A stretch of 64,000 bases of DNA from an uncultured bacterium (GTDB lineage: Bacteria; Patescibacteriota; JABMPQ01; CAVVCK01). Of this stretch, positions 8,549 through 41,311 are shown in pieces. Position 1 is the stretch's first letter; every line of letters begins with the position of its first letter. A program made the position numbers and the translations under genes. The DNA lies in NCBI GenBank assembly GCA_963746775.1, contig CAVVCK010000002.1, positions 75,571 to 139,570 of the forward strand, written 5' to 3'. The notes under the pieces are model-generated. The model saw only the letters and a program-made list of their open reading frames with translations, ran no database searches and was not told the DNA's origin.

Positions 8549-8632
8549 AAAGATTTTAAAAAATAAAAAAATCTGTAATAACAATTAGTATAATATATAA
8601 ACTACAATTCATGATCTATAATATATAATTCT

Positions 8633-9553: not shown

Positions 9554-9599
9554 TTAGACTGATTTATATATTAAAAATTCAACGTTTTAATATATTATT

Positions 9600-11720: not shown

Positions 11721-11740
11721 TTTATTTTAATCTATTATTT

Positions 11741-12232: not shown

Positions 12233-12346
12233 ATTATTATAAAGTTATTTATATATTTTAATATTTTTAAGGATTAATTCTGAATTATTATTCAATACAG
12301 GCTCAATTACAATATTTCAATAAGTCTATCGTATTTTTCCTGGTAA

Positions 12347-13921: not shown

Positions 13922-14247
13922 TTGATAATTAAAATTATTGATATAGCTCCTATTAGAATTCCCAAGAATTGTTTTAAAGCTATCTCCTCCTTAAATAAAA
14001 ATATTCCAGCAAAAACAACCCCCAGCATTGTACCGATTGTCATAATGGGACTAATTTTACTAAGATTAAATATTTTTAAAATATAGGCATAAATCCCGAA
14101 AGAAAATAAATAAAACAATCCACCAAAAATAAAATAAACAAAAAAATTAAATTCTTTCAAAAAAGTAAAATCACTGGATTTTTTTAACATAATCTGAGCT
14201 AGGGCACTAAACAAAATACCAAATATTATTAGTAAAATTTTAATCAT
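13918..14247 (-). CDS. Small DMT/EamA-type 4-TM membrane protein (ArnE/ArnF-like lipid-sugar flippase subunit)
   Basis: 109 aa, four hydrophobic helices, FSALAQIMLKK N-terminal motif; 4-bp overlap with both neighbours. Confidence 0.5.
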   Translation of the reverse strand: MIKILLIIFGILFSALAQIMLKKSSDFTFLKEFNFFVYFIFGGLFYLFSFGIYAYILKIFNLSKISPIMTIGTMLGVVFAGIFLFKEEIALKQFLGILIGAISIILIIK

Positions 14248-15172: not shown

Positions 15173-15183
15173 TTTATATAATC

Positions 15184-16641
15184 TTATTTTAACTTATATA
15201 CTTGAAATTGTTTATTTTCAAAAACCATTTTATTATTTTGCTTTAAGTAATTTTGAGTATTTTCTTTGTCTATATTTTTTGTAAAAACAAAATAATTAAT
15301 TTCTGACTCTTTCAAAAATTTAACGGAGTCTATTTTCACAGATTTTCTTTCCGTAAATAAATACATTACCCTAGGTTTAAAAAATACTATTGTCTCTTCT
15401 TCTGGAATATTATTTTTTACATACTTAAACAATTCTATTGAATTGTTAGCATAAGGGCCATTTAGTGAATTATTTACCTTGAAAATGGTTAAATTTTGAA
15501 TTGAAAAAAATATTAATAAGAAAATACCTAGAGTATAAATAATTTTTTTCGAACTAAGCCTAACAATATTTTTAAAGTCAATAATTTGTAATCCTAGTAT
15601 AACAAAAAATAAATAGAAAGGAATAAGTGTTATAATAAATCTTAGCCCTTGTTGGTAAGGATAAATAAGAAACAATCCAAAAGTTAATATAGAAAATAAC
15701 GTATAAAGATAATATTTCTTAAAATCTTTTAAAAAACCTAACACGAAAAAGAAAATGCTAGTGTTATAAATAGCATTAAAAAGATATGTTTTATGAATTC
15801 CTAAAAAATTAGGTAAATAATTTTTATTTCCAAAAAATTTAGCAAATACATCTAAATAATAATAAAAATTATAGGCTACTTGATTTAGAAAATTATTCGG
15901 GAGCAGAGAATGATTGGCCGCATACGAGCCTGATGGCAATATTACTAATACCAATAAATAAGTTATCAGAGATATTAAATATGGCAAACTTTCATCAATT
16001 ATATTAGAAAATCTATGAAACCATTTTTTATATTCAATTAATTGAACTAAGGGTAATAATATAAAGATAATTATAGAATTAGTTCTTATAAAAACACTCA
16101 TAAACATACTAAATCCTAAAATAATTAAACATATTCTTTTTGCCTTTAGTCTTTTTTTTTCACAATAAATCTTCTGAATTAAAAAAACAGACAATAGTAA
16201 AAAAAACATAGCTGGTATATCTGAAAGAACATTTTGCTTAAATAAAAAAAAGAAAGGAGAAGTAGCTATAAGTAAAATTAAAATTAACGATAAATGTTTA
16301 TCTAACTTAGCTTTAAATAAATAATATAAAATAATTAAAGAGCTGATAAAAAAAATATAAGTGACAATTTTCAATATTAATATATTAGCACCAAATAATA
16401 TTATTACTGGAGTTAAAATCAAGGGATAACCCCAAGGATATAGATCTGGTCCAACTTGCTTTTCAGAAAAAGAAACTCTAAAATCTGAGGCATTCACTAG
16501 ATTGTTTATTTTGTTTTCCACTAAAGCCCTTGATTGTCCAATATAGCCGCTAAAATCTCCTCCCCAATTATGTTCTTTATTTAAAGTAGCAATGTTAATA
16601 AAAATTATGATAATAATAAGAGATAATAAAACTTTTTTCAT
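15184..16641 (-). CDS. Polytopic membrane protein, GT-C-like glycosyltransferase
   Basis: 485 aa, N-terminal signal/TM, many TM helices, soluble C-terminal domain; the genomic context is glycan biosynthesis. Confidence 0.5.
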   Translation of the reverse strand: MKKVLLSLIIIIIFINIATLNKEHNWGGDFSGYIGQSRALVENKINNLVNASDFRVSFSEKQVGPDLYPWGYPLILTPVIILFGANILILKIVTYIFFISSLIILYYLFKAKLDKHLSLILILLIATSPFFFLFKQNVLSDIPAMFFLLLSVFLIQKIYCEKKRLKAKRICLIILGFSMFMSVFIRTNSIIIFILLPLVQLIEYKKWFHRFSNIIDESLPYLISLITYLLVLVILPSGSYAANHSLLPNNFLNQVAYNFYYYLDVFAKFFGNKNYLPNFLGIHKTYLFNAIYNTSIFFFVLGFLKDFKKYYLYTLFSILTFGLFLIYPYQQGLRFIITLIPFYLFFVILGLQIIDFKNIVRLSSKKIIYTLGIFLLIFFSIQNLTIFKVNNSLNGPYANNSIELFKYVKNNIPEEETIVFFKPRVMYLFTERKSVKIDSVKFLKESEINYFVFTKNIDKENTQNYLKQNNKMVFENKQFQVYKLK

Positions 16642-16709
16642 TTAAATTTTTATATTGTTGATTGATAGCTCATCCTTTAGTTTTGGATAATATATTTATA
16701 TATTGTTTT

Positions 16710-17354
16710 CTAAAATTTATATTTAAATAATTCTATATCATCATTAAATAAATTTTTTACTATATTTCTTGTTTCGCTAGTATAATATTCTTTATAATTT
16801 TTATGAGTTGAAATGTTTGTTTTTTTTAATACAGCCTTTACTTTGATTTTATCACAAACTTTTTGAAAATCTTTTTCTAAATTTTCAAATCTACCTACAA
16901 AATCAATAATATTTTTATTTTGATCATCAAAAATATAATTTTTTTGTTGACTAACACGTTTAGTTTTTCCAATTATATATACATAATCTCTAAAAGTATT
17001 TTTTTTATTAATTTTAAGGATTTTTTGAAGATCTTTTCTTTTCTGAATTATATAAAAATAGTGAGAAACAATTTTATCCCAAGGGTTCCTTATGAAAGTA
17101 AATTTATAGTAATCTTCCCATATATTTTTATCAATTTTCTTCTTTATTTGTAACGCCGTAAGGTGTTGGAGACAAATCAATCTCTTTTTTTCTTGCAAAT
17201 TTAAACCATCTTTAATACTGTATCTGTTGCCATTTGAATCTTCAAAACCAAATAAATCATTGTTCCTGTTTAAATCCAAACAATCCTCAACACTATCTCC
17301 TCCGGTTTTTGGAATATGGATAAATATAAATTTTTGCTTATGTGATATAGGCAT
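16710..17354 (-). CDS. Sulfotransferase (Sulfotransfer_2-like)
   Basis: 5'-PSB-like FIHIPKTGGDS and 3'-PB-like FIRNPWDKIVSHY motifs. Confidence 0.7.
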   Translation of the reverse strand: MPISHKQKFIFIHIPKTGGDSVEDCLDLNRNNDLFGFEDSNGNRYSIKDGLNLQEKKRLICLQHLTALQIKKKIDKNIWEDYYKFTFIRNPWDKIVSHYFYIIQKRKDLQKILKINKKNTFRDYVYIIGKTKRVSQQKNYIFDDQNKNIIDFVGRFENLEKDFQKVCDKIKVKAVLKKTNISTHKNYKEYYTSETRNIVKNLFNDDIELFKYKF

Positions 17355-17428
17355 CTTAGAAAATTTTAATAATTATTTCAGTAAAAGTTCATTTCTCTGT
17401 AGTCAAAAATTATGCGCAATATCTAATT

Positions 17429-18367
17429 TTAAAATAAATTACTACTATCCAAATTAAAATACTCTTTAGCAACCAATCTATTTGATTCTCTGTATTTATT
17501 AGTAATATAATTAAATAGTTCTTTATTCATTTTAAGTTTTTTATTTTTAAAATATTTTTTATTTATGTTATTTATTTTTTCAATTGAAGAAGAACCGTGC
17601 CATGTTTTTGCTTCATGTTTTATAAGGTAGTGTATTTTATTAATTATTCTTAAAACTCTCAACGTATTAACATTTAATGATATATTTTTATTTTCAATGT
17701 CCCTTAGATTGTTATACTCAATAGGGAAAATAGAAATGAAATCATCTATTAAATTATTATCTTTAAAATTATTTTTATTGAACACCCTAACGATAATATT
17801 CTCTTTTTTAAAAACGGAGCTCCAAAAATTTAATAATTGATAATAATCAAAGTTACTATAATTAATACTTCTTATCCAATCAGAAAATTTCTCAGAACAA
17901 CCACTTTTAACAGCAGTAGAATACAAGCTTGTGAAAAATAAATCCTGTCTTCTTAAATAAATTATTATTTTTATATCACCAGAAATTAAATGTAACAATT
18001 CATATAATTTATTAATTTCTTCTGAATTTCTTATTCTACTACTTAAAAGTTCGCTACTTAGAATAATCGAATAAGATTTTATCATTTTTTTACATTTTCT
18101 AACAAAAATCTGAGGAAATTCTTTTTGAAATTTATTATATTCATTCATATTCATTTGTTTCATTCTTCTTATGTCTACAGAATGTTTAGGATTAGAAGAA
18201 TACATGGATAAATCAAAACAATAAATTCCAAGAAATTTTGGATAAATATAGCCCTGTTTTAATATTTTATTCCTATTTTGCCATAAAAAATTTTGAATTG
18301 TAGTTGTACCTGTCTTTTCTGTACCAATGTGTAGGTATATAGTTTTATTTTCTTTTTTTCTTTTCAT
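17429..18367 (-). CDS. Sulfotransferase-domain protein
   Basis: HIGTEKTGTTT (PAPS 5'-phosphosulfate-binding P-loop-like) and YLRRQDLFFTSLY (R-x-x-D-x-x-x-S-x-Y 3'-PB-like). Confidence 0.55.
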   Translation of the reverse strand: MKRKKENKTIYLHIGTEKTGTTTIQNFLWQNRNKILKQGYIYPKFLGIYCFDLSMYSSNPKHSVDIRRMKQMNMNEYNKFQKEFPQIFVRKCKKMIKSYSIILSSELLSSRIRNSEEINKLYELLHLISGDIKIIIYLRRQDLFFTSLYSTAVKSGCSEKFSDWIRSINYSNFDYYQLLNFWSSVFKKENIIVRVFNKNNFKDNNLIDDFISIFPIEYNNLRDIENKNISLNVNTLRVLRIINKIHYLIKHEAKTWHGSSSIEKINNINKKYFKNKKLKMNKELFNYITNKYRESNRLVAKEYFNLDSSNLF

Positions 18368-18722
18368 ATTAAAAAATCTTTGAATTATTATTTTTGTTAA
18401 AAAGCCGCTTCCAAATTTTTATTAAACAAAAATACTCTTGCACTTACAATAAAGTAATTTATTTGTTATTGATGTAATAATATTATGTATCGCTATAAAA
18501 ACATTTTTATTTTTTCCTTATTTTCTTTAATGGTGCAAGAGTACCTCTACCATACTTAATATAATTCCAAGTTCGTTTAATTGTTTTTTTTAAACCTTCA
18601 TTTTGTAAATTTGATAAAGCTGAATCAGTAAGATACCTTAGTTTAAATTTGTATATAAATTTATTTACTATCATAATTTCAAATTTTAATTAATTTTATC
18701 ACAAGTAAATTTTTTATTACTA

Positions 18723-19268
18723 TTATTGAATGTCAGTATCAAAGAAAGGAAAATACCTTGATTTATATCGTAAATTTTTATTTCGTGTTTTTATTACTTT
18801 AGCCGGATTGCCAACAGCTATATTATAGGCAGGAATATCTTTTGTGACAACTGCTCCTGCACCAATCACTGCTCCCTCTCCTATAACCACCCCTGGAAGA
18901 ATAATCACTCTTGTTCCAATCCATGCGTTATCTCTAATAATAACCGGTTTTACTAAACAAGCAAAGTCTGGATTCTGTGGATCATGAGTTAAGGTTTGAA
19001 TTAATGTTTGATGAGAAATATTAACATTATTTCCAATTTTAACACCAGCACGTCCATCTAAATATGTCTGTCTATTAACTACGGTATTATTACCAATCTC
19101 TATCTTAGATCCAGTTACAAAACAATTCATATGTATACTAGAATTTTTACCAATTTTTAAATGACAAAAATGTCTTAGAAACCAATGTCGTAAAGTATAA
19201 GATGGTATTTTAGCAAATAAATGATTTGCCAAGTAAAAGCATAGGGCAAAAATTATTTTAATCAACAT
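18723..19268 (-). CDS. Hexapeptide-repeat O-acetyltransferase (WcaF/maltose acetyltransferase-like)
   Basis: Left-handed beta-helix repeats IGNNVNISHQ...IGTRVIILPGVVIGEGAVIGAGAVV. Confidence 0.8.
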   Translation of the reverse strand: MLIKIIFALCFYLANHLFAKIPSYTLRHWFLRHFCHLKIGKNSSIHMNCFVTGSKIEIGNNTVVNRQTYLDGRAGVKIGNNVNISHQTLIQTLTHDPQNPDFACLVKPVIIRDNAWIGTRVIILPGVVIGEGAVIGAGAVVTKDIPAYNIAVGNPAKVIKTRNKNLRYKSRYFPFFDTDIQ

Positions 19269-20505
19269 TTTGTTTATAACTTTTTGCTAAATTTGAAAAT
19301 ATTTTCTCGTATTCAATTATAGTATTTTTTAAATTGTAATATTTTATTATTTTATCTCTTCCCTTTTTCCCAGCATTTTTCCAGTACTCTTCATTATCTG
19401 TAAATTTTATCATAGCAGCAGCTAAATCATTCGCAGTATTATAATTTTTCTTGTTATAAGCAATATCATCTAATATCTGAGAATTAAAATCTGTAATATT
19501 TCCATATTCGTTTTTTATAATAATCCCAATATCATTATTTTCTATTACTTCTGACGAACCTCCGGTATCAGTTAATATCATAGGTTTCCTGTAAAACATA
19601 GCTTCATTCATTGCAATACTCCAACCCTCTATAAAAGAAGGAAGTAAAAATGCATCAGTAATATTATAAAATGACTCTATATTTGAGAAATATCCTGGCA
19701 TAATTATGTGTTTATTTAAGCCTTCTTTATTTAGATAATTTTGAAATTCTTCTATATGGTTTGGATTTATTATATTTCCTATACAAAGTATTTTAATGTT
19801 TTTGCGTTTTTTTAAAATATTTTTCATTGCATCAGCCATTAAATAATGTCCTTTGTGTAAATTATATGAGGCTACATTTAAAAATATATAATCATTTTTT
19901 GCTAATCCAAAATCATTTCTATTAATTTTATTTATGTTTTTCTCTCTCTGAAGATGTTCATCAATATTTAAACCATTGGAAATTGTGATAATTTTTTTAT
20001 TAGGAATTCCTAAAATTTTATTAGCATATATAGTCGCATTTTTCGATACAGATATATATAAATCAACATATAAATCATTTTCTTTAAATTTTTGTAATGC
20101 AGAATTATCTAAAAATGCATAAACATTATGAATAAATGTAATATTGGGAATTTTATTATTTTTTAATATTTTATACCCAAAATTAGAAAAATGGGAACAG
20201 CTTAAATTTATATTTTCTTTTTTTATAATTTTAGAATATTTTTTAGCTTTATTAAATAATCCAGCTAGATTATATGTTTTTATTCCCTTAGCTAGTGCTA
20301 TTTTACTCATATGTCCTGCTTTATTAATATTCACAATAACTGGATTAAATTTCTCTTTATCTAAAAATAAAGCATGATCCAAAATAACTTTTTGTAATCC
20401 GCCTTTATCAAAAGAATCTACCTCGATTAAAAGATTTATTTTTTTATCATCTTTAACAAATCTTGATTTGTTTTTCTTGAATAAATTTTTTAATAAATTT
20501 TTCAC
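19258..20505 (-). CDS. GT4 glycosyltransferase
   Basis: 415 aa; C-terminal ...LPSFIEGWSIAMNEAMFYRKPMILTDTGG... GT-B motif. Confidence 0.7.
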   Translation of the reverse strand: MKNLLKNLFKKNKSRFVKDDKKINLLIEVDSFDKGGLQKVILDHALFLDKEKFNPVIVNINKAGHMSKIALAKGIKTYNLAGLFNKAKKYSKIIKKENINLSCSHFSNFGYKILKNNKIPNITFIHNVYAFLDNSALQKFKENDLYVDLYISVSKNATIYANKILGIPNKKIITISNGLNIDEHLQREKNINKINRNDFGLAKNDYIFLNVASYNLHKGHYLMADAMKNILKKRKNIKILCIGNIINPNHIEEFQNYLNKEGLNKHIIMPGYFSNIESFYNITDAFLLPSFIEGWSIAMNEAMFYRKPMILTDTGGSSEVIENNDIGIIIKNEYGNITDFNSQILDDIAYNKKNYNTANDLAAAMIKFTDNEEYWKNAGKKGRDKIIKYYNLKNTIIEYEKIFSNLAKSYKQNVD

Positions 20506-21428
20506 TATTTTAGCATAGCTATTAATAATAATTTTGTTTCATCTTGCATAATTAAATCATAAAATTTATTTCTATCTTTAATATTAATATAAAGCATTAT
20601 ACATAAGATAATAATATTTGATAAATTTTTATTTTTTAAAAATAATTTTAGATATTCTATATTTTCAGGTAATAATTTTTTGATTAAATTAATATTATCT
20701 TCGACAACTGAAACGGCTGTTACTGCAGCCACTTCAATTTGCACTTTCGTAACAGTTTCTTTAATTGTATTTGATGAATGAATTCTATATTGAATATGAA
20801 CATGATTATCATAATAATACTCTGCTTGTCGCAAAGATGTAATTATAAAATCTAAATCATGACAATAACGCAATGGTTGAAATCCACCCACAGATTCCCA
20901 TAATTTCTTTGTAAAAAATAAGTTCGAAGTTGTTGTTATAAAATTTTCATTTAAAATTGATAATTGTAGGTAATTTGTTTTTTTAAAATAATCTAGCGCT
21001 CTTTTACGCCACTCCTTCTCCACTCCCGAGGTTATTATAGAACCTTTATCATTAATAAATTCTATTTCGCCAAAAATTAATTCAATCTTTGGATTATTTT
21101 GAATAATATCAACACATCTTCTAATTTTATCCTCTTTATAAATATCATCAGAATTTAGAACACTAATATATTCACCTGTTGCTAAGCTAATACATCTATT
21201 AATAGTATTATGAGCACCGGCATTTTCTTGTGAATAAAATTTAATATTTGAATATTTTTCTGCAAAATCCTTACAAATATCAGCAGAATTATCTTCTGAT
21301 CCATCATCAATTATTATTAATTCTATATTCTTATATGTTTGATTCAATACACTTTTAATTGTTCTCTTTATATATTTTTCATGGTTATAAGAAGGAATAA
21401 CCATGCTTACCTTCTTCATGTTTTTCAT
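20505..21428 (-). CDS. GT2 glycosyltransferase
   Basis: VSMVIPSYNHEKYIKRTIKSVLNQTY...IIIDDGSEDNS. Confidence 0.75.
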   Translation of the reverse strand: MKNMKKVSMVIPSYNHEKYIKRTIKSVLNQTYKNIELIIIDDGSEDNSADICKDFAEKYSNIKFYSQENAGAHNTINRCISLATGEYISVLNSDDIYKEDKIRRCVDIIQNNPKIELIFGEIEFINDKGSIITSGVEKEWRKRALDYFKKTNYLQLSILNENFITTTSNLFFTKKLWESVGGFQPLRYCHDLDFIITSLRQAEYYYDNHVHIQYRIHSSNTIKETVTKVQIEVAAVTAVSVVEDNINLIKKLLPENIEYLKLFLKNKNLSNIIILCIMLYINIKDRNKFYDLIMQDETKLLLIAMLK

Positions 21429-24373
21429 TATTTTAATAATTCTTTTAATACTTTTTTGGCATTTTCAGTTGAAAATTCTTTTTGTACGTGCTTTACAGAT
21501 TCTTTAGATATCTTCTCCCATAATAACTTATCATGATATAGGTTTACTACTTTTTTAGCAAAAACTTTTTTATCATCTGCCAAACAAGCGTTACGACCAT
21601 CAATTAATCCTATCCCCTCGGCTCCAATACTTGTAGTTACTACTGGAACCCCGAAACTCATTGCTTTAGCAATTTTACCTTTAAATCCTGCTCCAAATCT
21701 AAGAGGTGCAATAAAAACTTTTGATTCGGAAAACAACTCCGGAAGTTTGTTTTCTTCAACAAAACCCGTAATTTTAAATTGTCTTTCATTTAATTTTTCT
21801 ATTTCTTTTGGTACATTACTTCCCACAATAACAACTTTAAAATTTTTAATTTTATTTTTTAAAACCGGGAAAATTTCATCGTGAAACCAAATAACAGCAT
21901 CAATATTTGGTGCATGTGAAAACCCTCCTAAAAATATAATATTTTTTCTCTGTTGATATTTATCAAGAATATTATTTTCCATAACTGGCTGTATCCATGG
22001 CAAAGTAGCAGTTTTAATATTAGAATCTATTTTATCAATTATTTTTATTTCTTCTTTACTATAAAATAAGGAAATATCCGCTTTTCTCATTATTGAAAAT
22101 TCTTTTTTTTGCATAGTTTGATCTTTTTTTTCAAGATTTTTATTCATTATCTCTGACATTCTTTGTTCCCTTAAAAAATGTAGATCAACTCCGATATAAA
22201 GTATTTTTGTATTAGAATATTTTTTGATTATATTAAAAAATTCATTAGCTATAAGTGGTCTAGAAAGAAATGTATAATTAATATATTCTCCATTTATTTT
22301 TATAAAATTTAGAAAGGCTGAAGGACCATAAATAACTTTAATTCCTAAATTTGTTAATATTGTATTATATGGTTCTAGATGATTTTCATTATAAGAACAA
22401 AAAATAACATTATAACCAAGCTTTACTAAAATTAATAAATATTTATAGGCAATATATGACCCTGCATCTTTATCATAAGTAGGAAGAGTAAGGTCTATAA
22501 AAAGTATATTTTTTTTATCTTTTGAAATTATATTATTATAACTATGTTTATTTTTCTTATATTTAAAAAATATTAGAGGTAATTTAATAAATTTAAATAG
22601 AAATTTTGGAATAAATTTTTTAATCTGTTTCTTATAAATTTTATAAAAATAATTTGGTATTTTCCAACGTAATGTATTTTTTAAAGTGTATATTTCTTGA
22701 TTAAGATTTTTTATATACTCATCTCTATTCTTTATTTCATTCTCTCTATTCTTTATTTCGTTATCTTTTTGTTCAATTTTAATATTTTTACATTTTATTA
22801 AATCCTCATTATTATTTATCTTATTATTTTTAATACTTTCATAAATATAGTAATAATGCATTTGCAGTTCCTCTTGCATCTTAATTAATTTCTTGCAGAC
22901 ATCATTCTTGCTTTTAAATAATACTCCTAATCCAAAAGAATGGTGAAACTCTATAGTCTGATATTCTTGTTTTAATTCCTCCCAAAGTTTACATACTCCG
23001 AAACCTGACTCTCCAACCTTAATATCATGAAAAAGAATAATTCCGCTATCCTTTATTTTAATAAGCCAATTTTCAAAATCATGCTTTACCGCTTCATAGG
23101 TATGCAAACCATCAATATGAAGAATATCAATTGATTTATCTTTAAATTCAGAAATGGCATTATCAAAAGTTTTTTTAATCAGTTTAATTTCCACACCTGA
23201 ATATAATTTATTGACTACTTTTTGTACAAATTTATAAATATCATCTCCATAAAAACCCGCATGCTTATCGCCTTCCCATGTATCAATAGCATTAATTTCT
23301 GTCTTAATACCCTCATCTTTTACGGCTTGACAAAAAGAAAAAAACGATGTTCCTTTATGAGTTCCTAATTCAACAATTTTTTTTGGTTTAATATTTCTAA
23401 TTAAATCATACGAAAATAATTTATGACCAGCCCATGGCCAACTAATGTCTTGAAATTCTTTTTCGTATTCAAATACAGGAACAAAATATTTCCAATCTTT
23501 ATTTTTTGATTTATTAATAAAATTTTGAAAATCAAAAGATTCTATAATACCAATTCGCTGCATTTCCATTGCCTTTTCTTTAGATATTAATAATTTACTA
23601 TACTCTTCATCTAACTTTCCTAATTTATAAGCATCAAACCAACGACGAATGTGCCAATTTATATCTTTGCTAAAAGAATTATTTCTTTCCATAGCTCTAC
23701 CGTAATTAATAACTTTTCTATAAAATTCTTTTTTTTCTCTTAATGGAAAATGAAAAATATTAATATTTTCAGATTTTCTAGTATTGATTACTTTTTTTTT
23801 ATTAATAATAGAATGATTACCCATCGAGACCTTAAGTAGTCCTTCTCCTGTTTTAAAAATAACCTTAGGGGGATACCTAAAAAAATATAAATTTTCCTTT
23901 TTTGAATCTTCTTGGAAATTTTCAGTTTCTATTGGATGAACTACCGCATATTTTGCATTTTCTGGAAACGATTCCTTGCCACCTTTATTCTCAAGTAATA
24001 TATTAATTAAATTAACCTTCAAAACATCAGCAGATGAATTCCATATTTCAGCTTTCAAGTCCCCACTTTTAGGAAACCAAAATTCATCCGCATCGCAATG
24101 AAAAACGATATCAGCTTTATAATTATCAATCGCAATTCTAGCCATTTTATTATTCCACTTTGATTGAGATATGTCTCTACCTGGCTCATCTATCAAATAA
24201 AGCTTTCCTTGATTTTGGTATTTAACAAAGACATTTCTTGTATTATCGCTAGAAGCATTATCAGTAGCTATAATAAAATCAACTCCATGATTAAGATGAA
24301 ATTCTATATTTTTTTCTATAATATCACCCTCATCCCTAGCAAGGATGGTCATTATTAGCTTCGGATCTTTCAT
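21428..24373 (-). CDS. 981-aa multidomain enzyme: N-terminal GT2-like domain, CmcI/TylF-like class I methyltransferase, coiled coil, C-terminal GT4
   Basis: N-terminus TILARDEGDIIEKNIEFHLNHGVDFIIATDNASSDNT; middle IVELGTHKGTSFFSFCQA...DTWEGD...DGLHTYEAV; coiled coil with KNRENEIKNRDE repeat; C-terminus ...FKGKIAKAMSFGVPVVTTSIGAEG. Confidence 0.7.
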   Translation of the reverse strand: MKDPKLIMTILARDEGDIIEKNIEFHLNHGVDFIIATDNASSDNTRNVFVKYQNQGKLYLIDEPGRDISQSKWNNKMARIAIDNYKADIVFHCDADEFWFPKSGDLKAEIWNSSADVLKVNLINILLENKGGKESFPENAKYAVVHPIETENFQEDSKKENLYFFRYPPKVIFKTGEGLLKVSMGNHSIINKKKVINTRKSENINIFHFPLREKKEFYRKVINYGRAMERNNSFSKDINWHIRRWFDAYKLGKLDEEYSKLLISKEKAMEMQRIGIIESFDFQNFINKSKNKDWKYFVPVFEYEKEFQDISWPWAGHKLFSYDLIRNIKPKKIVELGTHKGTSFFSFCQAVKDEGIKTEINAIDTWEGDKHAGFYGDDIYKFVQKVVNKLYSGVEIKLIKKTFDNAISEFKDKSIDILHIDGLHTYEAVKHDFENWLIKIKDSGIILFHDIKVGESGFGVCKLWEELKQEYQTIEFHHSFGLGVLFKSKNDVCKKLIKMQEELQMHYYYIYESIKNNKINNNEDLIKCKNIKIEQKDNEIKNRENEIKNRDEYIKNLNQEIYTLKNTLRWKIPNYFYKIYKKQIKKFIPKFLFKFIKLPLIFFKYKKNKHSYNNIISKDKKNILFIDLTLPTYDKDAGSYIAYKYLLILVKLGYNVIFCSYNENHLEPYNTILTNLGIKVIYGPSAFLNFIKINGEYINYTFLSRPLIANEFFNIIKKYSNTKILYIGVDLHFLREQRMSEIMNKNLEKKDQTMQKKEFSIMRKADISLFYSKEEIKIIDKIDSNIKTATLPWIQPVMENNILDKYQQRKNIIFLGGFSHAPNIDAVIWFHDEIFPVLKNKIKNFKVVIVGSNVPKEIEKLNERQFKITGFVEENKLPELFSESKVFIAPLRFGAGFKGKIAKAMSFGVPVVTTSIGAEGIGLIDGRNACLADDKKVFAKKVVNLYHDKLLWEKISKESVKHVQKEFSTENAKKVLKELLK

Positions 24374-24406
24374 AATATCTAAATAATTATTTATTAGTTA
24401 TTCTTG

Positions 24407-26230
24407 CTAAAAAACTTTCCTAAAATATTTTTTAACAAATTTTTTAGGATTATGTATCGCCCAATTTAATTTTCCCATATAGGTATTACCCAGCTTTTCT
24501 AATCTATTTAACCTATCACTTAATTGCTGTATTTGATTATTCTTCTGTCGAATCAAGCTAACATAGTTATCTATCTTCTTAGTTTTTGAATTCAACAATT
24601 CTCTTTCTAACTTGATTTTCTCTTTTTTCTTTTTAATATTTCTATTCATCAGTTCGGTAATTTGATAAAAATATTCAGCATCATCATTTGAATAATGTTT
24701 CTTAATAAAATTACCGATTACATTTTTGTCTCTACTAGACAAACTATATTGCCATGGTAAGGCAAGTGCATAAAAAACATTATGAATATATTTCTTAAGC
24801 TCTAGAGTTATTCTAAAAGCAACTATATTGGGCAACACAAAATCCTTAAGATATTCTTCTGGAAATATTTTTTTAGAAGCCAAAAGACTCATTAAAACAC
24901 CGGTAGCATAAGAATCACCAAGGTATTGTAAATTACTACTATCAGCATTCTTTGAAACACGTATGGTTCCATTTTGAACAGGTAAGTTCTGTAAATTTAC
25001 ATCATGCAAAACGCAAATTGCATTCTCTTTCAAATATGGTAATAACATTAGAAAATCGAGTAATTCGCCAGGAAGAATATGTAAGGTATCCAAAATACAA
25101 AAATCAATATTATCGCCTATTTCATCTAGAAAACAGGCAGCAACTCCACCTGTAAAAATATTTAACTTATCACTTAATTCGGGATAAAGTTCATTGACAA
25201 CCCAACCTGATTTTTTTGAATCATCTCTATAATATTTTTTATTATAATCGATTCCTAAAACTTTTACGTTATCTTTATTTTTTGTTTCGTTTAATATAAT
25301 TGCCAAACAACTACCCGCCGCTATTCCAACTTCCAAAATTTTTTTAGGCTGTTCTTTTATTATTAAATTTTTAATAAATTCAACCTCTGATTTTTGCATT
25401 TCCGAATACTGCAAAGCAAAATTTTCACATATTAAGTCATAAAATGGATTAATTTTTGCATATTTCCAAAAATATTCAGACAAAAACATTTCCTTATTGT
25501 TCCATGGTTTTGTTGGTCCACAATAGTGAATAGTATGTATATTTTCAGTTAATTTAGACAATTTCTTTTCGTTCTCATAATAGGATAACTGAATATTGTA
25601 TTTTTCTGGTAATTTTTTAATAGAACCACTCAAAACAACATTTAGAACATCTTGATCTACAAAATCTATTTTTTCCCTATTATTTTTTGCCCATTCAAAT
25701 AATTTCTGTTCGATTTTGTCACTTCTCCATTTATTAAGATTTAAAAGCATTAACCCTGCATTAAAATAGTAGCTATTTAGTGGTAACTCAAGTCTTAATA
25801 ATTGTGAACCCAAGAATTCTATTGTACTAGCATTCAAAATCATTCCCGCATAATAGTTTCTTATATCTGTATTAAAAAGATCCAGAACGTCTTTCGATAT
25901 TATCATATCACTATCAAGGTATATGACTTTATCAATATTAGGAAATAAAGAAGCCAATTTAAATCTAAAATAGTTTTCTATTGAAAAATAATGAGTAATT
26001 GGGCAATGCTTAAAATCATTTTTATCAACGATAATAAAATCAATGGAACATTTTTTTATTTTTGTTAATTCCTGAAATTTATTTCTAGTTTCTTTTGATA
26101 AATTTGTTGCTAGAATATAAAAATTTAATTCTGTTTCCTTTTTTGAATTAGTTAATATAGATGCAATAGTCGTTGCACAGTATGGGGCATAATTTTCGTC
26201 TGTAGATAATATTATAGGGATTGTGGTCAT
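24407..26230 (-). CDS. 607-aa GT8 glycosyltransferase fused to a class I methyltransferase-like domain, coiled coil and shared C-terminal tail motif
   Basis: GT8 motifs IPIILSTDENYAPYCATTIASIL and YLDSDMII; ILEVGIAAGSCLAIIL...DTLHILPGE; C-terminus ...LEKLGNTYMGKLNWAIHNPKKFVKKYFRKVF. Confidence 0.7.
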   Translation of the reverse strand: MTTIPIILSTDENYAPYCATTIASILTNSKKETELNFYILATNLSKETRNKFQELTKIKKCSIDFIIVDKNDFKHCPITHYFSIENYFRFKLASLFPNIDKVIYLDSDMIISKDVLDLFNTDIRNYYAGMILNASTIEFLGSQLLRLELPLNSYYFNAGLMLLNLNKWRSDKIEQKLFEWAKNNREKIDFVDQDVLNVVLSGSIKKLPEKYNIQLSYYENEKKLSKLTENIHTIHYCGPTKPWNNKEMFLSEYFWKYAKINPFYDLICENFALQYSEMQKSEVEFIKNLIIKEQPKKILEVGIAAGSCLAIILNETKNKDNVKVLGIDYNKKYYRDDSKKSGWVVNELYPELSDKLNIFTGGVAACFLDEIGDNIDFCILDTLHILPGELLDFLMLLPYLKENAICVLHDVNLQNLPVQNGTIRVSKNADSSNLQYLGDSYATGVLMSLLASKKIFPEEYLKDFVLPNIVAFRITLELKKYIHNVFYALALPWQYSLSSRDKNVIGNFIKKHYSNDDAEYFYQITELMNRNIKKKKEKIKLERELLNSKTKKIDNYVSLIRQKNNQIQQLSDRLNRLEKLGNTYMGKLNWAIHNPKKFVKKYFRKVF

Positions 26231-26234: not shown

Positions 26235-27056
26235 TTAAAATTTTACTACAAGATAAGAACCGTTTCTACAAATTACTTTTTTGTGATCCAAAATATTCTG
26301 ATAAAAAAGATTATCAATAGTGCTACAATGTTCATTAGTATTCCTAATAATTGGATAAGAGTCTATCCAGTTTGTAATAATTAAGTAACCCTTGTTTTTA
26401 TGCAATACTTTACTTATTCTTTTAAAAACTATATTGGACTCCTCTTTATTTATATGCTCTATAGATTCAGTAAAAATAACAGTATCTATTTTCTTCCAAT
26501 TAATTTTCTCAAGTGCCTCAATTAGATTACAATTTATTAATTTTACATTATTCTTTATTTCCAATCTTTTGCTTGTTTTTTGTAATAATTCTTGTGCACA
26601 TTTACAAGACTCCACCATTTGCACATCAATTCCTAAGTAGCTTAAAGCAAGACTTACTTCTCCTCTTCCACCACCAATGTCTAAAACATGTTTTGGTTTT
26701 CTAGAATGATTATCAAAAATTTTAGACACTTGTTCTTTGGCTATCATTTGTGGAAACGGAATCTTGCCTACACCTTTGAAATTTAAAATTCTTTTAACTT
26801 TTTCAAAAGATTCTATTCCTAATGCGCAGGCTATTGCTGGACACTGATCTCCAAATCTAATCATATTATAATCCCAAGCATGTTGTTCTGGTATATTTTT
26901 TTTAGTAAAATATTTTTCATTGCAGATGCAATTTAAATTATTTGATTTATAAAAATCTTTTTTTACGATTTTTATTATCAGTAGATTTAATGATTTTAAA
27001 AAAAATATTTCTTGAGAAATTTGCGCGGATTGGTTAATGCCCAGCCATATCTCCAT
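26235..27056 (-). CDS. Class I SAM-dependent methyltransferase
   Basis: VLDIGGGRGEVSLALSYLGIDVQMVE motif I/II. Confidence 0.6.
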   Translation of the reverse strand: MEIWLGINQSAQISQEIFFLKSLNLLIIKIVKKDFYKSNNLNCICNEKYFTKKNIPEQHAWDYNMIRFGDQCPAIACALGIESFEKVKRILNFKGVGKIPFPQMIAKEQVSKIFDNHSRKPKHVLDIGGGRGEVSLALSYLGIDVQMVESCKCAQELLQKTSKRLEIKNNVKLINCNLIEALEKINWKKIDTVIFTESIEHINKEESNIVFKRISKVLHKNKGYLIITNWIDSYPIIRNTNEHCSTIDNLFYQNILDHKKVICRNGSYLVVKF

Positions 27057-27636
27057 TGCTTGGAATTCTTCAATTTTTGTATATCTTCCCCTGCTTTTAT
27101 GAAAATTTTTTTTGTCGCCAATGATGTTTTAGCCTTAATGCTTTTTTGTTTTTTTAGAAATTCTGTTAATTCATTTCGCTTAATATTTAATTTACAATTT
27201 TTCTCTAACCACAAAACCAGTGAATATTCTTTAAAGATAATTTGGTAATCTCTTTTATTGGGTTTTGTTAATTTTTTTACCCAAAAATATTTTGATTTAT
27301 CAATAACATTTTCCATATATGTTTTATTAGATTCATTTTTTACATACTCCCAACAACCACCCCAACCATCTTTTTTTTGATTTATAATAATTTCTGGAAG
27401 TTTCAATTTTTAACATATTTTCTAAAATATTTTGACCCATCTATTCCCCAAATATTTTTATTGTAAAGGGTATATAAATTTTCTATTAAATATGCATTTC
27501 CGCAACCAATATCACCAAATATTTTTCCTTTAATATTATTACTTATCCATTTGGAAATCTCAAAATAGTCATCTTTCCAATTAAAGTGCATTTTATAGAA
27601 TTGATCATTGTAGTATTTAAGATTTTTATCTCCCAT
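26996..27636 (-). CDS. Two adjacent ORFs (77 aa with GDIGCGNAYL methyltransferase motif I; 136 aa ending in the shared WALTNPRKFLKKYFF tail motif); possibly one split gene
   Basis: ORFs 27403..27636 and 26996..27406 overlap by 4 nt (TTGA); the C-terminal motif is homologous to the tails of three other proteins in the locus. Confidence 0.35.
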
Positions 27637-27639: not shown

Positions 27640-28066
27640 TATTATTTTTTAGGTTATTTATTTTCCAAATATCTTTTAATTATTTCTGCGCTGTTATCCT
27701 TAAAATCCTTAATTTTACCTTTTTCTAGCCACATAACTTTATTGCAATAATCTTTAATATTTTGCATTGAATGGGTTACATACAAAACTGTTTTTTGTTT
27801 TCTTTCATTTTTTTATAAAATCCCTCGCATTTTTTCTGAAAAGCAAAATCACCCACGGAAGAAAACTCATCTATTAAATAAAGTTTCCCCTTATTTTTAT
27901 ACTCAGTTAAAATATCTCTTGTATTATCGCTAGAAGCATTATCAGTAGCTATAATAAAATCAACTCCATGACTTAAATGAAATTCAATGTTTCTTCTTAT
28001 AATATCACCCTCGTCTCTAGCGAGAAGAGTCATTACTAATTTAGGATTTTTTTTAATAACACCCAT
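27640..28066 (-). pseudogene. Mosaic gene remnant: duplicate of the N-terminus of the 981-aa protein's GT2-like domain (about 150 bp near-identical to 24238-24375), fused to a degenerate copy of the ABC ATPase 3' end
   Basis: 96-aa ORF MGVIKKNPKLVMTLLARDEGDIIRRNIEFHLSHGVDFIIATDNASSDNT... then ...GDFAFQKKCEGFYKKMKENKK, similar to ABC ATPase ...GDFVFKKKCEKVFNNMKKERK. 27660-27860 aligns with 30600-30800. Confidence 0.5.
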
Positions 28067-28080
28067 AATTTTTAGACAAT

Positions 28081-30591
28081 TTAATTTATTTTTTCTTTTT
28101 GTACTGCAAAAGATAAGTATTTTACTAAAAACTTCTTTGGATTATGAATTGCCCAATTAATTTTTTCAAAATATTTCTTAATAAACTTCTTCGGATTGTG
28201 CACCGCCCAATTTAATTTCCCCAAAAAAGTATTATTTAATTTATTAAAAGCTTCTAGGGTTTTATTCTGATTTGCTATTAAGTCATCTTTACTCTTTATT
28301 TTATTCTCTTTCCATTCTATTTGTTTATCTTTATCTATAATATTATCTATAATATTTAATTGAAGATTACGTATTTGAATAATCAATTGTTTTTTTGAGG
28401 CATGTCTTTCATCACTAACAAAATTAATGCTCGATTTATTATTTCTGTATGCATTATTTGTTAAAGCTTTAATCTTAAAATTATTTTTCCATAATACATA
28501 AACTAAACTTAATTGGTCTCTATATGAATAATTTTTAATCCAATACCACCAATCACTCATAATTTTTATTATTTTTTTGTTGTTATGTTTTCTGTATACA
28601 ATATTAGTTTCAAAAAAAGTTCCAAAGCTTCCAGAAAAACCAGAATTTTTAATAATTGATTTTTGTTTTTCAATAGTTTTAATATTATCTTTTTTTAAAA
28701 ATTCACAAGCATCAAATTCATCATATATATTATGTCTTTCTGGATGAGGACCAATAGACATTAATTGTCTAGCAATATCGGCTCTCTTAATATCTTGAAA
28801 AATTCTATTATTTAATATATCAATATTAGCATCAACATATAAACTTTCATTATATTCTGGGAAAAGAATATGGGGATGTAATTTGTGCCAGCGGCTATTA
28901 CGCACATCATTTAATTTGTCAAATTTTAATGATCTAAATTTCCAAATAAATTTGTTTTTATCTTTGGGAATATTGTCTGTAAAACAAACATAATTCCAGT
29001 CATCATTAATATATTTGTGATTTATAATTTCATCATAATTACCCGTAACACAAGTATACACTACTTTAGTTTTTTTCTTTTTAATTTTCTGTATCCTGTG
29101 TTTAATTTTATTAGTGGATACAATTGTTAGTTCGTTTTTGCTATCAACTTTAAGACTGGGATAAACTAGTTTAAGTTTTTTGCTAATTTTACTATTATCT
29201 TCTATAAAATATATAAAATTTTTAGACAAGTGGGGTAATATACTTTTCATGGTATTTAAAATACTTTCATCAGAATGAAAACCATCATCAATAACAATAT
29301 CTATTTTATCTCCTTTAAGAATTTTTTCTAAATAATTTTTATTATCAACAGATTGATCAAATTCATAAAGTTCTGGTTGGTTTTTCAAAAAAGCACTAAG
29401 TTTTTTTAAATTTTTTATGTTGTTTTTGATATGATTCAAATCTTTATCAAGACAAATAATTCTTCCCTTTTCAAAAAGATCACACCAAACAGCCAGACCA
29501 CTTCCTTTCAAAATCCCTGTTTCCACAAAAACAGGTAGCTTTTTTGCCTTGATGATTGGCGAAAGATACTCCGCATACTTTTCTGCGTATCCATGATAAA
29601 GCATTCTATCTCCTCCTGTATTTATCTCTTCTCTTGTTCTTGTGTCAAAAGGAGAAACTTTGTTTCTTGGAACATTAGTAGCAATTCCTCCATACCTTAT
29701 TTCCTTTTCGATAAGCCATTTTTGTAAGTTTAACTGGTCTTTAGTCAACTTTTTTGGTAACTTTATCATTTCTCCAAATTCATAATCCCATTCAACTGGT
29801 TTAAAAGGATCTAATCCGGCACCTGGATAAAATGTCATTTCTCCAAAATAAGTTTTTCCTTTAGTTGAGTATAAATCTACTCTAACAAAAGGAAATTTTG
29901 ATGATAATTTTTTTGCAACAACTAACATTTCGTTTAAATTCGGTGGTTTTGGTATGTTAAAAGAATCATCCTTAGGATAAGCAAATTTTTCTATGTTTAA
30001 GTAATTCCAATTCAAGTCATAAAAATTTCTCCTATGGTTTGTAAATCTACCCACATCAACGCCAATGCATATAGGTTTTCCAGAAAAACAAAATATTTTA
30101 TAATCAAGAAGATTATCACCTAAATATTCTTCACAAATTATTTTTGGTTTAATGTTTTTGTAGCCCCATTCATATGAAAAATAATAATGATTAGAACTTG
30201 ATTTAATCCATTCTTTTAATTTATTTTTAACATCTTTTTCATTTAGCTTCAGTTTGTTTTTGCAAATAATATTTTGTCCACTACCATGATTTATCTTTAA
30301 AATAAATTTATTTGGTAGTTTATTAAAATTTATTTTATTCTCATTATTGTAAACACCTAATAGATTTGTTAAATATTTCTTTCCGATTATTTTTTTTACG
30401 TAATCTCTCACCTTATATTTATCAGCACATAATGTTAATAATGGATTTTTGTAATATAATTTTAGCCACTGCAATTTTTCATTAAAAGTTGTTGGGTTAT
30501 CTATATCTGGATTGTAACCAAAACTATTGATAAATTGTTTTTGAATATGTTCTTTAGTAAGAAATATATTATTGCTTATATTATTTTGCAT
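28081..30591 (-). CDS. 836-aa multidomain protein: TupA-like ATP-grasp domain, CmcI-like methyltransferase domain, DUF616-like putative glycosyltransferase domain, coiled coil, doubled C-terminal tail motif
   Basis: NPDIDNPTTFNEKLQWLKLYYKNPLLTLCADKYKVRDYV (TupA-like); VETGILKGSGLAVWCDLF...IDDGFHSD; KVVYTCVTGNYDEI...VCFTDN (DUF616-like); C-terminus GKLNWAVHNPKKFIKKYFEKINWAIHNPKKFLVKYL. Confidence 0.65.
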   Translation of the reverse strand: MQNNISNNIFLTKEHIQKQFINSFGYNPDIDNPTTFNEKLQWLKLYYKNPLLTLCADKYKVRDYVKKIIGKKYLTNLLGVYNNENKINFNKLPNKFILKINHGSGQNIICKNKLKLNEKDVKNKLKEWIKSSSNHYYFSYEWGYKNIKPKIICEEYLGDNLLDYKIFCFSGKPICIGVDVGRFTNHRRNFYDLNWNYLNIEKFAYPKDDSFNIPKPPNLNEMLVVAKKLSSKFPFVRVDLYSTKGKTYFGEMTFYPGAGLDPFKPVEWDYEFGEMIKLPKKLTKDQLNLQKWLIEKEIRYGGIATNVPRNKVSPFDTRTREEINTGGDRMLYHGYAEKYAEYLSPIIKAKKLPVFVETGILKGSGLAVWCDLFEKGRIICLDKDLNHIKNNIKNLKKLSAFLKNQPELYEFDQSVDNKNYLEKILKGDKIDIVIDDGFHSDESILNTMKSILPHLSKNFIYFIEDNSKISKKLKLVYPSLKVDSKNELTIVSTNKIKHRIQKIKKKKTKVVYTCVTGNYDEIINHKYINDDWNYVCFTDNIPKDKNKFIWKFRSLKFDKLNDVRNSRWHKLHPHILFPEYNESLYVDANIDILNNRIFQDIKRADIARQLMSIGPHPERHNIYDEFDACEFLKKDNIKTIEKQKSIIKNSGFSGSFGTFFETNIVYRKHNNKKIIKIMSDWWYWIKNYSYRDQLSLVYVLWKNNFKIKALTNNAYRNNKSSINFVSDERHASKKQLIIQIRNLQLNIIDNIIDKDKQIEWKENKIKSKDDLIANQNKTLEAFNKLNNTFLGKLNWAVHNPKKFIKKYFEKINWAIHNPKKFLVKYLSFAVQKEKIN

Positions 30592-31315
30592 TATTATTAT
30601 TCAAATATTCTTTTATAATTTCACTATTATTATCCCCAAAATCTTTAATAACCCCTTTCTCTAGCCATATAACCTTATTACAATATTTTTTTACCTGCTC
30701 TGAAGAATGAGAAACAAATATAATAGTTTTTCTTTCTTTTTTCATATTGTTAAATACCTTTTCACATTTCTTTTTAAAAACAAAATCTCCTACCGCTAAC
30801 ACTTCATCTAATAAATAGATGTCAGCTTCAGCATGAATAGCAATAGAAAAAGCTAATCTTACTTTCATACCCGAAGAAAAATTTTTTAATGGAACGTCTA
30901 GAAATTCTCTGATTTCAGCAAAATCAACTATTTCATTAAACCTATTATTTAATTCTTTTTTTGTAATATTTAATATTGTACCATTCAAAAATATGTTGTC
31001 TCTGGCTGACAAATTCTGATTGAAACCAACTCCTAATTCTAAAAAAGGTACTAGCGTTCCGTTTTTGATTATTTCTCCTTTGTCTTGTTCGTAAATTCCA
31101 GCAATAATTTTAAGCAAGGTAGACTTGCCGGAACCATTTTTACCAATCAATCCTAGCCAATCTCCCCTCTTTAAATCAAAGCTGATATTCTCCAGCGCTT
31201 TAAATTTCTTGTACTTAATTTTATTAACATTAAAAAAATAAGCTCTTAAACTATTTTGAGTTGGTATTCTAAATGATTTATAAACATTTTTAACCTCTAA
31301 AATATTGTTTTCCAT
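30581..31315 (-). CDS. ABC transporter ATP-binding protein, polysaccharide/teichoic-acid export type (Wzt/TagH-like)
   Basis: Walker A GLIGKNGSGKST, signature FSSGMKVRL, Walker B IYLLDEVLAVGD. Confidence 0.85.
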   Translation of the reverse strand: MENNILEVKNVYKSFRIPTQNSLRAYFFNVNKIKYKKFKALENISFDLKRGDWLGLIGKNGSGKSTLLKIIAGIYEQDKGEIIKNGTLVPFLELGVGFNQNLSARDNIFLNGTILNITKKELNNRFNEIVDFAEIREFLDVPLKNFSSGMKVRLAFSIAIHAEADIYLLDEVLAVGDFVFKKKCEKVFNNMKKERKTIIFVSHSSEQVKKYCNKVIWLEKGVIKDFGDNNSEIIKEYLNNNNAK

Positions 31316-32080
31316 TTAAAAAAATTCTGCTACTTTTTTAATTTTTTTCTTAAAGAAAAAATAACCAATTATGAAAGTAGTAATACTTATTAGTAATAAA
31401 ACTATCAAAAATTTTAAATCCGGAAGTTGATTTTCAATAATTATTTGCCTAACTTGATAAATAATGATAGTAGTTGGATTTAGAAACATTATGTATCTAT
31501 ATTTTTCTGGAATAATGGTTATGGGGAAAAAAACAGCGCTAGCATAAAAATTAAGCTGTAATAGCACTCCCCATATTTTTTGTAAATCTCGAAAACGTAC
31601 ATATAAAATACTTGCGATAAACGTAAAGCCAATTATAAAGATAGTTAAAATTATAATATAAATAGGCAGAAGAAGCCATAAATAAGTTATAGCTGTAGGC
31701 TTAAATATCCAAAAAGCGATAAATACAACAAAACTAAAAAGCATAGCTATAAAAGAATTTATGACTGAGGCTACTACTGCTATCTGCCTAGGAAAATTAA
31801 CTTTTAAAATAATATTTGCTTTATTTAAAATAGAACTAAGCCCAGCTGATGTGCCTTCATTAAAATATTCCACTATTAACAAGCCTAAAATTAATCGTAA
31901 AACAAAATATTCATCCCCTCTGGCAAATATAAAGCCGAAAATTAAGTATAAAACTAAAAAATGAAGCAAAGGCTGAAATAAAACCCAAATAAAACCTAAA
32001 ACGGAATCATTATACCTCATCTTAAAATCAGTCTTGATCATTTGCCACAATAAATCTTTATTGGCTCTAGTTATTTTCAT
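31316..32080 (-). CDS. ABC-2 type transporter permease (Wzm/TagG-like)
   Basis: 254 aa, six TM helices; directly upstream of the ATPase gene and overlapping it by 1 nt. Confidence 0.8.
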   Translation of the reverse strand: MKITRANKDLLWQMIKTDFKMRYNDSVLGFIWVLFQPLLHFLVLYLIFGFIFARGDEYFVLRLILGLLIVEYFNEGTSAGLSSILNKANIILKVNFPRQIAVVASVINSFIAMLFSFVVFIAFWIFKPTAITYLWLLLPIYIIILTIFIIGFTFIASILYVRFRDLQKIWGVLLQLNFYASAVFFPITIIPEKYRYIMFLNPTTIIIYQVRQIIIENQLPDLKFLIVLLLISITTFIIGYFFFKKKIKKVAEFF

Positions 32081-40745: not shown

Positions 40746-40789
40746 ACGTTGTCGGATTTCTTCCCTGAATATTAATTAGCTTAAAATAT

Positions 40790-41308: not shown

Positions 41309-41311
41309 TTT

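Follow-up and report, generated by a model that had tools for sequence, protein, structure and literature searches.

In a few enterobacterial enzymes, a coiled coil is known to serve as a molecular ruler that determines how long the bacterial surface glycan becomes. To our knowledge, the membrane-proximal end of these ruler enzymes is structurally uncharacterised and carries no recognisable sequence signature. In WbdD, catalytic domains are followed by a trimeric coiled-coil ruler and a C-terminal region, with the C-terminal end of the coil at the membrane (PMC3447403, PMC5082667, PMC11231755), and an amphipathic helix in the C-terminal region positions WbdD at the inner membrane and brings in the polymerase (PMC3447403, PMC3482155, PMC11231755). 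WbbB of Klebsiella pneumoniae O12 and ORF6 of serotype O7 unite terminator, coiled coil and polymerase glycosyltransferase (GT) modules in one polypeptide (PMC11231755), and the GT-B enzymes PimA and LpxB carry a basic amphipathic motif with a membrane-contacting Trp (PMC6286764). Here we analyse a short peptide tail that recurs on glycan-modifying enzymes encoded in 64,000 nucleotides of DNA from an uncultured bacterium of the Patescibacteriota (assembly GCA_963746775.1, contig CAVVCK010000002.1, positions 75,571 to 139,570; this whole stretch is called the window). The tail is a real, selected, unannotated and portable module. By analogy with WbdD it would be an anchor of ~18 residues at the membrane-proximal end of the stalk in cytoplasmic enzymes of the Wzm/Wzt pathway, a reading that we hold to be probable, if only just. 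The ruler base appears here as a separate and recognisable unit of variable copy number, transferred among many types of enzyme, and one of its carriers is encoded in a metagenome-assembled genome (MAG) of the uncultured lineage Candidatus Paceibacterota.

The tail motif and its predicted structure

The tail is encoded within a series of minus-strand genes for glycan biosynthesis in this window of 28% GC. Six-frame translation yields four occurrences of the consensus W-A-[IVL]-[HT]-N-P-[KR]-K-F-x-x-K-Y-[FL]. The regular expression W.{4}P[KR][KR]F matches exactly four times in all six frames, each time at one of these copies, and gave a mean of 0.007 matches and a maximum of 1 in 2000 shuffles within open reading frames (ORFs). 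All four copies are on the minus strand. The original prediction had assigned the tail to four different proteins; the peptide is indeed where it was placed (by our count at 24410-24475, 28084-28221 and 26999-27055, minus strand), and two tandem copies do end the 836-aa protein, but the count resolves into four instances on three ORFs, of 607, 836 (two in tandem) and 136 aa, and a 981-aa protein has only a diverged internal version. With a 13-sequence profile (A4), whole-library E values for the three ORFs were 5.9e-15, 1.5e-10 (607 aa) and 2.3e-6 (136 aa) in 1.84e9 proteins. The Pro is invariant in the alignment, and W, N-P, F and K-Y are nearly so. The motif is real and non-random. Carriers and copies are as follows.

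24407-26230, minus strand: 607-aa ORF, GT8 + Methyltransf_24 (Pfam)
24410..24475, minus strand: tail of the 607-aa protein, GKLNWAIHNPKKFVKKYFRKVF, residues 586-607 (G586-F607), stop codon 24407-24409, profile E=1.5e-10
28081-30591, minus strand: 836-aa ORF, ATPgrasp_TupA + Methyltransf_24 + TOD1/DUF616 (Pfam)
28165..28221, minus strand: first tail copy of the 836-aa protein, GKLNWAVHNPKKFIKKYFE, residues 791-809, domain score 50.8 bits, predicted helix break at N799
28084..28164, minus strand: second tandem tail copy of the 836-aa protein, KINWAIHNPKKFLVKYLSFAVQKEKIN, residues 810-836, stop 28081-28083, 34.3 bits, predicted helix break at N817
26996-27406, minus strand: 136-aa ORF without recognisable Pfam domain
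26999..27055, minus strand: tail of the 136-aa ORF, WRYGWALTNPRKFLKKYFF, residues 118-136, profile E=2.3e-6

Over its two copies, the 836-aa protein ends in GKLNWAVHNPKKFIKKYFEKINWAIHNPKKFLVKYLSFAVQKEKIN. The Pfam architectures of the 607-aa and 836-aa proteins bear out the claim that the tail sits on unrelated catalytic domains. It also corresponds to no named domain, as had been supposed: a Pfam-A search over the tail gave no match at E<=1, only sub-threshold noise, and a profile search of the PDB with the tail returned only a chance 12-residue match to ribosomal protein eS7 (E 0.19), with no solved chain covering the tail. The 136-aa ORF is of doubtful status and may be a gene remnant; it has no recognisable domain and sits among gene remnants, and its listing as a glycan-modifying protein is unsupported.

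AlphaFold2 (AF2) models were made from single sequences, the 607-aa model covering the last 129 residues. For the 607-aa protein, AF2 predicts a helix of 79 residues that breaks at N594 and is followed by a second helix from P595 to V606, with a predicted local distance difference test score (pLDDT) of 74-98. For the 836-aa protein (mean pLDDT 62.5), breaks are predicted exactly at N799 and N817, with a 17-18-residue helix after each N-P. All three modelled copies thus break directly before the Pro and continue as helices of 12-18 residues. A coiled coil had been said to precede every tail; this holds for the 607-aa and 836-aa proteins, where AF2 predicts a long helix, but none is evident in the 136-aa ORF.

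24452..24688, minus strand: predicted coiled-coil stalk helix before the 607-aa tail, residues ~515-593 (AF2 segment residues 37-115, pLDDT 80-98)

The residues after the Pro are hydrophobic or aromatic at i, i+1, i+4, i+5, i+8 and i+9, and Lys or Arg elsewhere. For the post-Pro 12-mers of 23 instances, the hydrophobic moment averages 0.55, peaks at 90-100 degrees per residue and keeps a constant direction; their net charge is +1 to +6, positive in every instance. Consistent with the amphipathic character proposed originally, the post-Pro segment is predicted to form a cationic, aromatic amphipathic helix.

The fourth protein differs in its form of the tail.

21428-24373, minus strand: 981-aa ORF, GT2_4 + Methyltransf_24 + coiled coil + GT1
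22553..22672, minus strand: diverged internal equivalent of the tail in the 981-aa protein, LRWKIPNYFYKIYKKQIKKFIPKFLFKFIKLPLIFFKYKK, after the coiled coil and before the C-terminal GT domain (net charge +13)

This diverged version, LRWKIPNYFYKIYKK, aligns with the tail at the Trp: a BLASTP comparison of the 836-aa C-terminus with the middle of the 981-aa protein (E=5e-5) places Trp on Trp. The segment gave no score with the tail profile. Its orthologue of 1272 aa on a related 1.05-Mb contig (L011) has three canonical tail copies at the same position. In the 607-, 836- and 981-aa proteins alike, the Methyltransf_24 domain is N-terminal to the coil.

Distribution, selection and spread

Related proteins are given P numbers, and loci or contigs L numbers. 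The tail is not absent from orthologues: it is kept at the C-terminus of P0002 (89% identity to the 607-aa protein) and also in P0109, which combines ATP-grasp, a coil and two tails. In the homologue P0003 it is internal, before an added GT1 domain; P0004 and P0005 have an internal F-variant, KFAVFEP[NK]RF.NKYL, and four GT2+GT8 proteins (P0022, P0024, P0026, P0030) have FAIFSP..F[VI]KKY[WF] close to the C-terminus. In P0007 and P0112, SLSW[TK]LTSPLRMVDRWLKIRQ, a tail of the form SLSW[TK]LTSPLR, ends the protein after a coiled coil. The A4 profile found only eight proteins at E<=1e-3 among the 1.84e9 representative proteins, namely the three window ORFs, P0007, P0112, P0109, P0110 (Sulfotransfer_2, GT2, coil and two tails) and P0111 (MT24, FkbM, GT4, coil and three tails). 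The 1272-aa protein of L011 runs from GT92/GT2_4 and MT24 to two GT2 domains, its tails (...NWAVHNPKKFLKKYFEKANWAVRNPWKFIKKYF...IKWTMCNPKKFLKKY...) preceding the GT2 domains. A protein of the Candidatus Paceibacterota MAG (L002) has a coil, three tandem copies (IRWALHHPLRFLKK / IRWVILHPLKFLKK / IIWAIYNPKKFFEKYF) and then an RgpF domain, and in L013 a plain GT2 ends in FIFLNPRKFLKKYLKV.

At the DNA level, the degenerate pattern W-A-x-x-N-P-[KR]-K-F-x-x-K matched four loci in GTDB representative genomes, of which L002 is the only true one; the others (L003-L005) were rejected as chance or unrelated internal matches. In JGI metagenome contigs the same pattern gave three matches, all out of frame or inside unrelated genes (rpoB, ftsA-like). 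A four-sequence tail profile (A3) run against a word-indexed database of 5.8e9 proteins, a method ill-suited to so short a query, gave 76 candidates, none at E<=10. The closest named homologue is from a Weeksellaceae MAG (60% identity), and the closest motif-bearing genome is the Candidatus Paceibacterota MAG.

Across carriers, the tail occurs in one to three tandem copies and on at least eight catalytic architectures; where a coil is present, it marks the C-terminal end of the coil, and either ends the protein or separates the coil from additional GT domains. The tail is a portable module across unrelated catalytic domains. As to the question, raised originally, whether it is restricted to one lineage and always C-terminal, the module is rare and appears confined to a few lineages, and some of its copies are internal.

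Several Methyltransf_24 homologues (P0023, P0027 and P0025, a Brachyspira O-methyltransferase) have a shorter look-alike end, AWWIP[IV][RK]KWR..FR.KF or LACFIPNRKNRHHLRMKY, in which the Trp or Phe is three residues from the Pro instead of five, as in the 981-aa protein of the window. In the Brachyspira proteins a PDQTR repeat follows this end. The look-alikes may represent a broader, less strict group of basic aromatic tails borne by glycan enzymes.

The DNA underlying the tails had been described as visibly similar. The 607-aa and 836-aa tails are indeed 78% identical in nucleotides, but the proportion of synonymous differences (pS) is near saturation at 0.75, against 0.11 for nonsynonymous differences (pN), so that the likeness of the DNA mostly reflects a conserved peptide at 28% GC. 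Among the tails of L011, pS is 0.22-0.30 and pN 0.02-0.03. These ratios are rough, being based on only ~13 synonymous sites; purifying selection on the tail peptide is nevertheless evident.

The window also contains a segmental duplication: 24185-24488 and 27866-28234 share ~80% nucleotide identity, the second copy being truncated. The duplicated segment runs from the tail across a spacer into the next gene, of which it includes the first ~64 codons. The truncated copy of these codons lies just downstream of the 836-aa tail and mirrors the succession of the 607-aa tail and the start of the 981-aa gene.

27866..28058, minus strand: truncated duplicate of the first ~64 codons of the 981-aa gene (24185-24377), 81% nucleotide identity, pS 0.49, pN 0.11

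In L011, three consecutive genes after Wzt (8757-15926) carry two, two and three tails. A sharply bounded cassette of ~165 nt, made up of the last ~28 coil residues and the first tail, is 90-100% identical in nucleotides across the three genes, with flanks at random level, which indicates, from the sequences, concerted evolution within the locus. In view of the window duplication and the L011 cassette, the module moves, or is homogenised, by intra-locus recombination. In the coil DNA just upstream of the shared cassette are 21-nt tandem repeats of one heptad each (~KENEIKS / ENEIKNR), whose changes in copy number would lengthen or shorten the stalk by one heptad per step.

Window 22706-22766 and L011 9735-9802, 11852-11892 and 13728-13792: 21-nt repeat arrays, copy number 2.0-3.2, the array at L011 13728-13792 100% matched

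The gene remnants between 26996 and 28066 are a 77-aa methyltransferase motif-I fragment and a 96-aa ORF (27776-28066) that contains the truncated duplicate of the 981-aa N-terminus. The C-terminal part of the 96-aa ORF, VGDFAFQKKCEGFYKKMKENKKQF, resembles by eye the C-terminal part of Wzt, and this ORF looks like a recombination scar. Within 26996-27636, the 77-aa ORF holds methyltransferase motif I only; the 136-aa ORF has 4 nt in common with it and, at its own 3' end, shares 61 nt with the long N-terminal extension of a 273-aa methyltransferase ORF. An independent Logan assembly (L001) shows the same arrangement. These overlapping ORFs are probably gene remnants or have mis-called starts. 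A single frameshifted methyltransferase composed of the 77-aa and 136-aa ORFs was considered and rejected, only the 77-aa part of such a fusion resembling motif I.

The locus and the proposed role of the tail

Immediately upstream of the 836-aa gene are the genes of an ABC transporter.

30581-31315, minus strand: Wzt, ABC ATPase of 244 aa (PF00005, Pfam on the identical Logan contig)
31316-32080, minus strand: Wzm, ABC-2 permease of 254 aa (PF01061, Pfam on the identical Logan contig)

These neighbours define the locus as an ABC-transporter-dependent glycan pathway. Wzm and Wzt adjoin the tail genes in the window and in L011, and Wzt does so in L002, that is, in all three loci where a transporter is visible. 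No stretch of 19 residues in the 607-, 836- or 981-aa proteins reached transmembrane-grade hydrophobicity, and these proteins would accordingly need another tether to act on a lipid-linked substrate. In carriers with a coil, the tail marks its C-terminal end, which is the membrane end in the WbdD paradigm, and this fits a role in targeting. A common targeting or docking signal, as first proposed, is therefore supported as a class by portability, selection, coil-end position, the predicted kink and helix, and the lack of both a transmembrane segment and a Pfam match.

We infer membrane binding, ruler function and terminator activity from position, physical chemistry and precedent, as follows. 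The stalk helix would end in the conserved Trp, and the invariant (N/S)-Pro would kink the chain, whereupon the next ~12 residues, P-K-K-F-[VIL]-K-K-Y-F-x-K-[VI], would form the cationic aromatic amphipathic helix. This helix may lie in the plane of the cytoplasmic membrane surface, its Phe, Tyr and Trp inserted and its Lys and Arg in contact with anionic lipid head groups. Avidity would come from the one to three tandem copies, their number raised further as the coil oligomerises, and the stalk base would in this way be fixed at the membrane, close to the transporter and the lipid-linked glycan. At the N-terminus, the modifying or terminating domains (methyltransferase, GT8, ATP-grasp, sulfotransferase) would thereby be kept a fixed distance away, as they are in WbdD of Escherichia coli O9a, and any GT domains following the tail would sit at the membrane and form the polymerase part, as in proteins of the WbbB type.

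Several observations weigh against such an anchor. The AF2 models derive from single sequences, with low confidence for the 836-aa protein. The amphipathicity of single tails is only modestly above that of composition-matched shuffles (median p 0.07, some copies 0.3-0.6), and a 100-degree periodicity by itself fits an in-plane helix and a coiled-coil heptad alike. Some carriers, namely the P0022-type proteins, the GT2 of L013 and the 136-aa ORF, have no obvious long coiled coil and are a poor fit to the base of a ruler. Homology to the WbdD C-terminus was not detected by hhalign (A4 against A5: probability 0.07%, E 0.72, only the Trp column aligned); in addition, the tail hidden Markov model had no match on the WbdD ORF in L006, and a protein search with the C-terminal 197 aa of WbdD, meant to yield a bridge profile, returned only seven close enterobacterial fragments, too few for one. 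That the tail binds lipid at all, we infer. Finally, the conservation of W, N-P, F and K-Y is tighter than generic membrane-binding helices need, and would suit a protein partner equally well or better.

This last point leads to the best-surviving alternative, namely that the tail is a docking or co-assembly tag, which would bind a common partner (Wzm/Wzt, a polymerase GT or a scaffold) or bring different enzymes with the same cassette into a mixed coiled-coil oligomer, and so into one complex for glycan tailoring, with membrane contact secondary or absent. We regard this as a serious possibility, although an unlikely one. In addition to the near-invariance of these residues, the ~165-nt cassette of L011 is common to three adjacent genes with unrelated catalytic domains, and identical stalk ends are the expected outcome of selection for hetero-oligomerisation or for a common partner; the C-terminal region of WbdD also recruits WbdA (PMC3482155, PMC11231755). 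However, the candidate partner is still hypothetical, the identity of the cassettes may equally reflect recent gene conversion (pS 0.22-0.30), a strongly cationic helix with one aromatic half is a textbook interfacial membrane helix, and a copy number of one to three suits avidity at a surface better than one-to-one docking. The two readings are compatible and not mutually exclusive; lipid binding and protein docking, both predicted, fit the computed evidence alike and may coexist, as in WbdD. In a more speculative extension, to which we give rather little credence, the last ~4 heptads and the kinked tail would together be an assembly-and-anchor module that permits mixed stalks, with several catalytic heads per ruler and combinatorial capping or decoration of the glycan; gene conversion would keep the cassette identical, and the heptad repeats may vary the length of stalk and glycan.

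That the tail is instead a by-product of recombination, shared through duplicated or converted DNA as a cassette boundary without protein function, we consider very unlikely. Such an origin would be in keeping with the segmental duplication of the window, with the gene remnants between 26996 and 28066, and with the L011 cassettes, which are 93-94% identical. Against it, the peptide is kept where synonymous sites are near saturation, the motif is always in frame and is repeated in tandem inside single proteins, and it recurs in different assemblies, including the Candidatus Paceibacterota MAG, in varied forms (W/F variants, SLSW.LTSPLR); recombination accounts for the spread of the tail, not for its maintenance. 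An even less credible view, that the tail is no more than the final turns of the coil, whether an ordinary heptad or a helix cap that stabilises the oligomer without targeting it, could draw on the prediction of the Trp and preceding residues within the long helix, on the 90-100 degree periodicity and on the BLASTP alignment of the 836-aa and 981-aa stalk ends up to the Trp, but ordinary heptads do not have an invariant Pro at the site of the predicted helix break of each of the three modelled copies, nearly invariant W, K and Y, a Phe/Tyr/Trp face over half the helix with Lys and Arg on the other half (unlike a/d core packing), or a unit repeated in tandem with a kink each time, and the tail also occurs in proteins without a long coiled coil.

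If anchoring or docking is its true role, the tail would offer a sequence marker by which metagenomes could be searched for glycan enzymes of the ruler type, a minimal peptide with which to study the membrane attachment of such complexes, and a handle on whether several enzymes share one stalk.

Much of the remainder of the window is likewise given over to glycan biosynthesis, at 1712-20505 and 40011-52050. Among them are two polyprenyl-phosphate glycosyltransferases (PgfS/ArnC-like, 14240-15172; AglJ-like, 3976-5136), a large putative GT resembling LA_3751 (15184-16641), a WcaF-like acetyltransferase, a Wzx-like flippase (41935-43353) and an O-antigen-ligase/IctB-like protein (50761-52050). 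The presence of Wzm/Wzt and Wzx-like genes in one window suggests that ABC-transporter and Wzx-type pathways lie side by side. The Wzt of the window (30581-31315) has 244 aa and no C-terminal extension, while that of the Paceibacterota locus L002 (2386-3609) has 407 aa with a long C-terminal extension, possibly a carbohydrate-binding module; given this difference, the coupling of chain termination to export may differ between the loci.

Comparison with described systems

The C-termini of MinD and FtsA and the motifs of PimA and LpxB resemble the tail in being short, cationic, aromatic, often C-terminal elements for peripheral membrane binding. Like the MinD and FtsA peptides, the tail is a short helix with a hydrophobic and a basic face, although some of its copies are internal and not terminal. 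The hydrophobic moment and charge of the MinD and FtsA peptides are similar to those of the tails. Unlike the tail, these elements are not known to form a recognisable sequence family across unrelated proteins, to follow a conserved Trp-x3-N-Pro kink or to be repeated in tandem.

WbbB and ORF6 of serotype O7, compared here by their published layout, provide the parallel for internal tails. In the 1272-aa protein of L011, in the L002 protein and in P0003, as in the diverged segment of the 981-aa protein, the tail lies at the junction of the coil and the C-terminal GT domain or domains. A discrete basic motif at this junction is not described for WbbB or ORF6-O7 in the literature cited above.

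The closest likeness is to WbdD, the chain terminator of E. coli O9a and K. pneumoniae O3 and O5, which shares with the carriers a methyltransferase, a long coil and a short basic C-terminus in a cytoplasmic protein of a Wzm/Wzt pathway. In WbdD of E. coli HS (O9), a Trp also comes right after the coil (SRSW595RMTKGYRYL), and the cationic amphipathic helix at ~615-632 has a hydrophobic moment of 0.6-0.73, matching the values of the window tails. The tail thus has both the coil-end position and the cationic amphipathic helix of the WbdD type, the carriers without a long coil being exceptions. A junction motif, S-x-S-W-R-x-T-x-P-L-R, may be widespread in proteobacterial enzymes; we saw forms of it only in P0007 and P0112 (SLSW[TK]LTSPLR) and in WbdD (SRSWRMT), and treat it as a lead, not a result. 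The differences lie in scale and deployment: the WbdD region has ~110 residues in a single copy, whereas the window tail has ~18 residues, directly follows the coil via the N-P kink and occurs in one to three copies, and, unlike in WbdD, several different enzymes of the locus carry it. The likeness is architectural only; while not a member of the WbdD family, the tail would, by this analogy, work like the C-terminal region of WbdD.

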